DNA of 64,000 nucleotides from an uncultured archaeon. GTDB lineage: Archaea > Asgardarchaeota > Heimdallarchaeia > Heimdallarchaeales > Heimdallarchaeaceae. The DNA lies in the NCBI GenBank assembly GCA_964534625.1, contig CAZHRF010000003.1, positions 1 through 64,000 of the forward strand. Reading direction: 5' to 3'. Below the pieces are notes generated by a model. That model saw only the letters and a program-made list of their open reading frames with translations. It had not been told where the DNA came from and made no database searches. Below, piece after piece: positions 44,862 to 45,248 of the stretch (positions are counted from its first letter, which is position 1; every line of letters begins with the position of its first letter). Both the position numbers and the translations under genes were made by a program.

Positions 44862-44992
44862 TGGGAACAAACCATAGATGCGATGATAAAAAATTGGTTT
44901 GATGATCATTAGAGAGGAGTAGACTCTGGAGCAATGAGCAGAAAATGGTTGAAGTGCAAAACTGGTAACCACAGAATTGCACACAGTTCCCA
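44862..44992 (+). ncRNA. Box C/D guide sRNA predicted to direct Cm34 and Cm39 of pre-tRNA-Trp
   Basis: C-like GCGATGA 44880-86 (or ATGATAA 44883-89), D' ATGA 44902-05, C' GAGAGGA 44912-18, D ATGA 44934-37; 12-nt and 9-nt guides antisense to the adjacent pre-tRNA; terminal stems; ATTTAAG TATA-like at 44834-40. Confidence 0.8.
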
Positions 44993-45141
44993 CTAAAAAA
45001 TCAGATTTTGAGTAATTTATGAAGGGTTTCTACTTGTTTTCATATTGTTTTTGTATGTTTTTCACCAAACAACTTAAAATTTGAATTTAAGGCTCAAATC
45101 ATATAGTTATAAATTTGAGTAAGAGAAATTTAATAAAAAAT

Positions 45142-45248
45142 TGGTGGGGACTAGGATATTTGAAATCCTGACCAACTGGTTTTTTCGCGTGACCGATTAC
45201 CGGTCAGACTCTGGAGCCAGCCACTCTACCTGACTGAGCTAAGTCCCC
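45142..45248 (-). tRNA. trnW: tRNA-Trp(CCA) with 30-nt intron at 37/38 (45181-45210) and encoded CCA end
   Basis: Cloverleaf: GGGGACT/AGTCCCC acceptor, GCTC/GAGT D stem, GCTGG/CCAGT anticodon stem, AGGAT-TTCAAAT-ATCCT T arm, ACCA end; TTTAAA about 25 nt upstream. Confidence 0.92.

Follow-up and report, generated by a model that had tools for sequence, protein, structure and literature searches.

A free-standing box C/D RNA predicted to guide methylation of pre-tRNA-Trp in a Heimdallarchaeaceae genome

Where does the methylation guide for tRNA-Trp reside when the intron of its gene lacks a box C/D core? The question arises at a locus in a 64,000-nucleotide (nt) stretch of an uncultured archaeal genome (contig CAZHRF010000003.1, assembly GCA_964534625.1). 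The whole stretch is called the window here, and all window coordinates are positions in it. In Euryarchaeota, the pre-tRNA-Trp intron is itself a C/D dual guide (the Haloferax volcanii intron and Pyrococcus sR50; Clouet d'Orval 2001 and Singh 2004, as relayed in PMC7994747 and PMC4090602). This intron is the textbook case of one that serves the RNA hosting it, and the guide for positions 34 and 39 was described as 'always intronic' in the archaea surveyed at the time (PMC2584109). An earlier reading of the window, the original prediction, proposed a separate guide gene next to the tRNA-Trp gene. We conclude that the element at 44883–44937 on the plus strand is very probably a free-standing dual C/D guide for C34 and C39 of pre-tRNA-Trp, and that it likely derives from an intronic guide. 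The present genome is labeled G000, and families and genera are labeled f and g. The host family (f1) was placed as Heimdallarchaeaceae by NMD3 homologs and a fibrillarin look-up, in agreement with the Asgard lineage originally proposed.

The target is a tRNA-Trp(CCA) gene with encoded CCA at 45142–45248 on the minus strand, found by Rfam and by ARAGORN run with introns. It is the sole Trp tRNA called in the 3.37-Mb assembly. Its 37/38 intron (45181–45210, minus strand; 30 nt) has a relaxed bulge-helix-bulge (BHB) motif whose central helix contains two Watson-Crick pairs out of four, with C34 facing A. The intron folds as a single hairpin (z −2.8). It has no C box, and its one CUGA is hidden in the stem; the proposal of a 30-nt hairpin devoid of C/D architecture therefore stands. 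No guide of the sR50 type lies inside the tRNA-Trp intron of this genome.

The guide reads, in order along the plus strand, C box (AUGAUAA, 44883–44889), a 12-nt D' guide (44890–44901), D' box (AUGA, 44902–44905), a 9-nt loop, C' box (AGGAGUA, 44915–44921), a 12-nt D guide (44922–44933), and D box (AUGA, 44934–44937). The C' box is degenerate compared with AUGAUUN in relatives, yet can pair with D' through G-U and U-A, and its register is taken from the 12-nt spacer to D. A constrained fold closes the core with terminal stems at 44879–81/44938–40 and 44870–75/44945–50 (span 44870–44950). The four boxes, although degenerate, have spacers of about 12 nt and the G-A cores of a kink-turn (K-turn) and a K-loop, and the C- and C'-like boxes are suitably placed, as had been claimed, each 12 nt before its partner.

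Both guides are in register with the tRNA. Positions 44921–44932 are identical to 45206–45217 and hence antisense to G31–G37 plus intron nt 1–5 (a 12-bp duplex), with G44929, the fifth base before the D box (N+5), facing C34 at plus coordinate 45214. Positions 44892–44900 pair with the last two intron nt and A38–U44 across the 3' splice junction (9 bp including one G-U), and N+5 base G44897 pairs with C39 (45179). The coordinates given in the original prediction for this identity and for both registers all check. Antisense lengths of 9–12 bp with Watson-Crick pairs at N+5 are those of archaeal C/D guides, and by these rules the guide is predicted to target positions 34 and 39 of the unspliced precursor.

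We scanned the genome for C/D architectures carrying both guides on one molecule, with all ARAGORN-called tRNA genes plus 16S and 23S rRNA as targets, and only 44883–44937 was returned. When the targets were reversed or complemented as controls, the scan returned 0 and 3, so by itself it is not decisive. Folded as a free RNA, the guide shows no significant structure (z −0.41), the usual result for C/D RNAs. The 12-mer occurs a third time, at C5:44347, but this copy was rejected as a guide: no box follows it, and it lies in apparent coding sequence. Separately, 44886–44898 is an exact 13-nt repeat of 45133–45145, which makes the D' guide and part of the C box complementary to the ACCA end of the pre-tRNA and to its U-rich trailer; N+5 would fall on C74. 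This match is probably due to chance because it is apparently not kept in relatives and is mismatched at N+2/N+3.

Conservation gives the stronger test. A covariance model (R1) built from 12 free guides only matches 27 of 30 family relatives, once each, with 26 copies free and one intronic (G019). Free guides also occur in the sister families f3 (nine genomes) and f4 (three genomes). Guide and tRNA-Trp share a contig in 25 family genomes, always less than 5 kb apart (68 nt to 4.9 kb). Twenty-two of these pairs are tandem, with the guide downstream of the tRNA, two are divergent, and one, that of the present genome, is convergent. In f3 and f4, guide and tRNA-Trp are on different contigs or 23 kb apart. 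The proposal that the guide faces its own target is thus true here but incidental, and that of a separate convergent gene about 150 bp away holds except for the distance, which is 204 nt from the D box to the tRNA 3' end, on opposite strands. The check set in advance for related tRNA-Trp loci was a conserved neighboring guide with compensatory changes: a free guide was found in 26 of the 30 relatives, and its pairing with the intron ends covaries among the 32 genomes compared below.

These data bear on the simplest alternative, a degenerate direct repeat of the anticodon region (a pseudogene or integration scar) or a chance match with no guide role. Both matches are colinear with the plus strand of the tRNA gene, and insertion sequence (IS)-like repeats lie nearby. 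However, only two guides of 9–12 nt match, each in N+5 register before a box, and the element is conserved in three families, in all orientations and unlinked, with covariation. Judged from the sequences compared, conservation with covariation in 30+ genomes is decisive evidence against chance, and this alternative is refuted, with virtually no probability left to it.

Outside these families the pattern thins. An exact-pattern search for free guides in f11 and f14 gave only matches without C/D architecture, and no convincing guide was found in f2 and f7. In f9 (Wukongarchaeota; L122 and L123), a related C/D element directly abuts the tRNA-Trp 5' end, and f16 (L124) has a free guide in which only the C34 arm is recognizable; both arrangements are probably independent exits from the intron. 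The tRNA-Trp introns of f11 (Thorarchaeota, L131–L136) share GGGGUCA, which could pair with the 38–42 strand and is possibly a reduced single guide for position 39. Lineage names are as deposited, from one protein per family: G004 and G007 match Ca. Heimdallarchaeum, f5 Hodarchaeota, f9 Wukongarchaeota, and f11 Thorarchaeota.

Whether the guide is fitted to the precursor or to the spliced tRNA was assessed in the 32 genomes with both guide and tRNA sequences (f1, 22; f3, 8; f4, 2). N+5 matches C34 in 32/32 and C39 in 31/32. Intron nt 2 is a Watson-Crick partner of guide N+10 in all 32, as G-C in f1 (22), U-A in f3 (8), and C-G in f4 (2). In spliced tRNA that guide base would face the invariant C39, so the consistently complementary partner indicates that the guide tracks the precursor. 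Intron nt 3 pairs in 22 of 32, nt 4 is mostly unpaired, and the last two of the 12 D-guide pairs (intron nt 4–5) are not conserved in relatives. D' N+3 is paired with the final intron nt in every genome; in Ca. Heimdallarchaeum this A-U pair has become U-A, alongside a switch at exon position 41. Computed energies agree for the D guide, which binds the precursor more strongly in 32/32 (mean −17.6 versus −13.9 kcal/mol for mature tRNA; −21.6 versus −13.9 kcal/mol in this genome). Across 12 lineage representatives, guides paired with the tRNA of their own genome have a score of 92, whereas permuted pairings average 70.5 and never exceed 87, a difference that relatedness inflates. The covariation events are few but involve different Watson-Crick pairs. 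Covariation with intron nt 2 and the last intron nt bears out the claim that the guide recognizes the unspliced precursor, and a function as the guide for 2'-O-methylcytidines Cm34 and Cm39 on pre-tRNA-Trp is highly probable from these comparisons.

The boxes had been called non-canonical AUGA D boxes, and they are, but the variant is guide-specific and mostly compensated by U at C-box position 6. The D box of the family is AUGA (19) or UUGA (3), usually complemented by C-box position 6 (U-A 17, A-U 2), and AUGA occupies the D' site in 21 of 22 family genomes. In f3 and f4 the D box is mostly CUGA with G-C. This C/D stem II pair covaries over the 32 genomes (U-A 17, A-U 3, G-C 9), and AUGA is best read as a compensated K-turn variant because C-box position 6 usually complements it. 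Two other unannotated C/D small RNAs (sRNAs) of this genome, at C32:5385 (+) and C114:66 (−), have D' guides aimed at positions 471 and 992 of its own 16S rRNA; they have CUGA D boxes and homologs in all five relatives tested. AUGA is therefore specific to the Trp guide.

The present genome is the exception to C-box compensation. Its position 6 is an A facing the D-box A, a mismatch peculiar to it, and with the degenerate C' this suggests that the copy may be weak. A decaying element, one or both methylations no longer being guided, would be in keeping with these two features and with a longer D'-C' loop, the rearranged neighborhood, and the missing BHB described below. Both guides nevertheless match their own tRNA, including G42 and intron U3-C4-U5. 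In a related strain from another study, 12 substitutions are among the changes listed in the 74 nt of 44806–44879, whereas 44880–44932 has one listed change, in the loop, and the counts allow at most one more; the core is nearly unchanged while the upstream spacer diverges. We regard decay as improbable.

The machinery is encoded in the genome. Fibrillarin and Nop5 genes are side by side, and L7Ae-family genes are present as two PF01248 matches, in which L7Ae and L30e are not told apart. The splicing endonuclease EndA has two paralogs (L196:1450–2001 and L197:1261–1836; 183 and 191 aa), the second with a weak Sen15 match and no obvious catalytic His. EndA of the two-subunit type accepts relaxed splice motifs, which fits the weak central helix of this pre-tRNA-Trp. 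In the proposed pathway, the guide would be transcribed from the NMD3 operon or from a TATA-like site at 44835 and its precursor trimmed, possibly, and more speculatively, on a tRNA-like frame. The candidate TATA (TTTAAG, 44835–44840, plus strand) is 28 nt before 44863, compared with 26 nt for the TTTAAA of the tRNA gene, and is weak evidence in an AT-rich genome. L7Ae, Nop5, and fibrillarin would assemble on the two K-motifs, as established for the C/D family. The ribonucleoprotein (RNP) may then invade the anticodon arm of the precursor, plausibly eased by the C34-A mismatch that most genomes of the order have in the central splice helix. Pairing in trans across both splice junctions would direct 2'-O-methylation at C34 (D) and C39 (D'), and the covariation suggests that Cm34 and Cm39 are made before splicing.

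Coverage of both splice junctions also suggests another function, in which the RNP mainly chaperones or delays splicing of a weak-BHB precursor and methylation is secondary. The conserved C34-A mismatch fits this, as does retention of the guide across the order when loss of the methylations leaves H. volcanii growth unimpaired (PMC11408192). The N+5 register is strictly kept, though, as methylation requires, and the splicing effect is purely hypothetical; we give it a slim chance, a little below that of decay. Since the methylations are dispensable in H. volcanii, their physiological weight is probably modest. The short intron may have been kept because it still supplies part of the binding site of the guide.

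The origin of the free gene can be approached through intronic copies. In f5 and f6 (both of the same class) and in f10, f12, f18, and f21, the tRNA-Trp intron contains the guide, and in f17 a degenerate form of it; a second covariance model (R2) found the copies in f5, f6, f12, and f21. Box-to-target order is the same in the intronic Asgard copies (D to 34, D' to 39). As the intronic state is found in Asgard families and in Euryarchaeota (PMC2584109, PMC7994747), it is the parsimonious ancestor. Within the family itself, the guide is intronic in G019 and contigs L302 and L304. Their copies have the AUGA boxes typical of the family, and a guide change fits the U that these tRNAs have at intron nt 1; the R1 model detects the G019 copy although it was built from free guides alone. 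These three form one clade on NMD3 (0.995). The Nop5 plus fibrillarin tree places G019 within g2+g4 (ultrafast bootstrap 100), with the present genome branching first. Either one exit followed by re-entry or several exits would give this nesting, and two short markers cannot settle which.

Remnants of a tRNA gene flank the free copies. A canonical BHB stands at a fixed distance around 19 of 21 g4 copies by strict criteria and both g5 copies (null 3–4%), and the remaining two g4 copies have one mismatch beside the bulge. The central helix of these motifs begins CU, like C32–U33, and covaries at position 3 (U-A/C-G switch). Two control C/D guides had no consistent BHB around them, and none was found around the guides of G000, g2, g3, f3, and f4 bar one chance-level match. 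In genus g2, the tRNA-Trp T-stem and acceptor end are retained downstream of the guide (0/500 shuffles). In the present genome, a putative precursor with a tRNA-Trp vestige spans 44863–44995 (plus strand; fold and inverted repeat I21), with an acceptor-like stem (44863–68/44986–91), a discriminator and CCA-like end ACUA (44992–95), and a hairpin in the position of the T arm (44954–82). A post hoc shuffle test gave 1/20000, and the 3' side alone p=0.08. Of six strain changes listed over 44863–44995, five fall in unpaired positions or keep the pairing.

Gene position points the same way. The guide directly follows NMD3 (43695–44804, plus strand), the last gene of the aIF2beta-DUF424-NMD3 operon; in G019 this site holds the intron-bearing tRNA-Trp gene, and in several relatives tRNA-Trp directly follows NMD3. 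Duplication of an intron-containing tRNA-Trp gene with reciprocal loss explains the intronic relatives, the flank vestiges, and the NMD3-adjacent position together, and is the likely origin of the free guide. After duplication, one copy would have kept the tRNA, its intron shrunk to the ends, and the other would have retained the guide while most of its tRNA body disappeared. Intronic copies in relatives, shared boxes, and vestigial flanks support the common origin with the intronic guide that had been claimed. The claim of an intermediate between intron-encoded and free guides is right for gene layout but not for mechanism, since trans action is already a property of the intronic guide in Euryarchaeota (PMC7994747, PMC4090602).

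A functional free guide might instead have arisen independently, like Pyrobaculum sR26 or sR-tMet, and replaced a lost intronic guide, converging on its target. Guide sequences are dictated by the target, and the f3 and f4 guides are unlinked and have plain terminal stems. The G000 guide also does not score against Rfam RF01133 (sR3; no match at E≤10), the best match of the intronic Asgard copies; even the intronic homolog L119 reaches 37.4 bits, below the gathering threshold of 41 bits, and the guide has no gathering-level Rfam family membership. An independent origin leaves unaccounted for the identical box-to-target order, the AUGA boxes common to free guides and the intronic G019, L302, and L304 copies, the splice-motif and tRNA-body vestiges, and the tight linkage in the family. 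It is already weakened for Heimdallarchaeaceae, more so than for f3 and f4, and we consider it unlikely overall.

Several points weigh against the reading as a whole. Precursor and mature tRNA are not distinguished by D' duplex energy, the three states of intron nt 2 amount to only two independent changes, and guide similarity among genomes is partly forced by the shared target. For this genome, stem II has the A-A mismatch, C' is degenerate, no BHB surrounds the guide, and the tRNA remnant was spotted before it was tested. The GTDB order is not monophyletic in the Nop5 plus fibrillarin tree, so any count of exits is tentative.

The vestiges invite a bolder version of the duplication, a 'tRNA ghost', which we put forward tentatively as somewhat short of an even chance. 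The guide would be a duplicated pre-tRNA-Trp gene still matured by tRNA enzymes. In g4 and g5 EndA and RtcB would process it as an intron lacking its tRNA, and here and in g2 RNase P and tRNase Z would act on a mimic of the acceptor stem and T arm, with one clade later moving the guide back into the intron. Berkemer et al. are said to have proposed BHB elements around archaeal C/D RNAs in 2015. If the ghost version is true, it would document a reversible route from tRNA introns to free s(no)RNA genes in a lineage close to eukaryotes.

Compared with known systems, the chemistry is known and the gene layout is new. The H. volcanii/sR50 guide shares targets 34 and 39, pairing across both splice junctions, and trans action on the precursor; the separate gene, the 30-nt intron without a C/D core, and the AUGA boxes differ. 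H. volcanii sR-tMet and Pyrococcus sR49, which direct Cm34 in a pre-tRNA-Met that has an intron (PMC2584109, PMC4033218), are likewise separate genes that pair partly with an intron and must act before splicing, but they hit one site (34) of tRNA-Met, whereas the present guide addresses two sites of tRNA-Trp and bears signs of descent from the intron of its own target. Pyrobaculum sR26 is a C/D sRNA predicted to methylate tRNA-Trp C34 (PMC6009581), but on mature tRNA; it is not among the dual tRNA guides listed there, and no intron pairing is reported. Dicistronic tRNA-C/D sRNA genes are described from I. hospitalis, T. tenax, and N. equitans (Tripp 2017, as relayed in PMC7994747). Relatives with the guide 68–70 nt downstream of tRNA-Trp on the same strand resemble them, except that here the neighbor of the guide is its own target; in the present genome the two cannot share a transcript because the genes are convergent. 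No paper describing a free dual 34/39 Trp guide, or the Trp guide in any Asgard archaeon, turned up in a search that covered few subscription papers, and a 2026 preprint on Asgard tRNA introns (10.64898/2026.10.13.758758) does not mention Trp, guide, box, or sRNA. With free and intronic states plus vestiges of the move, a single family offers a natural series for the birth of stand-alone guide genes and for how their ends are made.

The surroundings of the locus are unusual in other respects. Gene order across 42234–48226 has been rearranged. In relatives, aIF1A-Rio1-Dim2-PHP form a single run divergent from aIF2beta-DUF424-NMD3; in this genome, Rio1-Dim2-PHP lies beyond tRNA-Trp, converging on NMD3. 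Adjoining the tRNA promoter, 45300–45800 is multi-copy IS-like non-coding DNA with very high read depth and loose ends, with a hairpin near 45620–45639 and a 12-nt direct repeat at 45291 and 45825. The related strain has different DNA at 45023–45132 and is without 45350–45465. Among relatives, the tRNA-Trp genes of L019, L021, L066, L069, L071, L073, L074, L302, and L304 appear to have additional introns, placed in the D loop, the anticodon stem, or the T loop, with up to four in G035.
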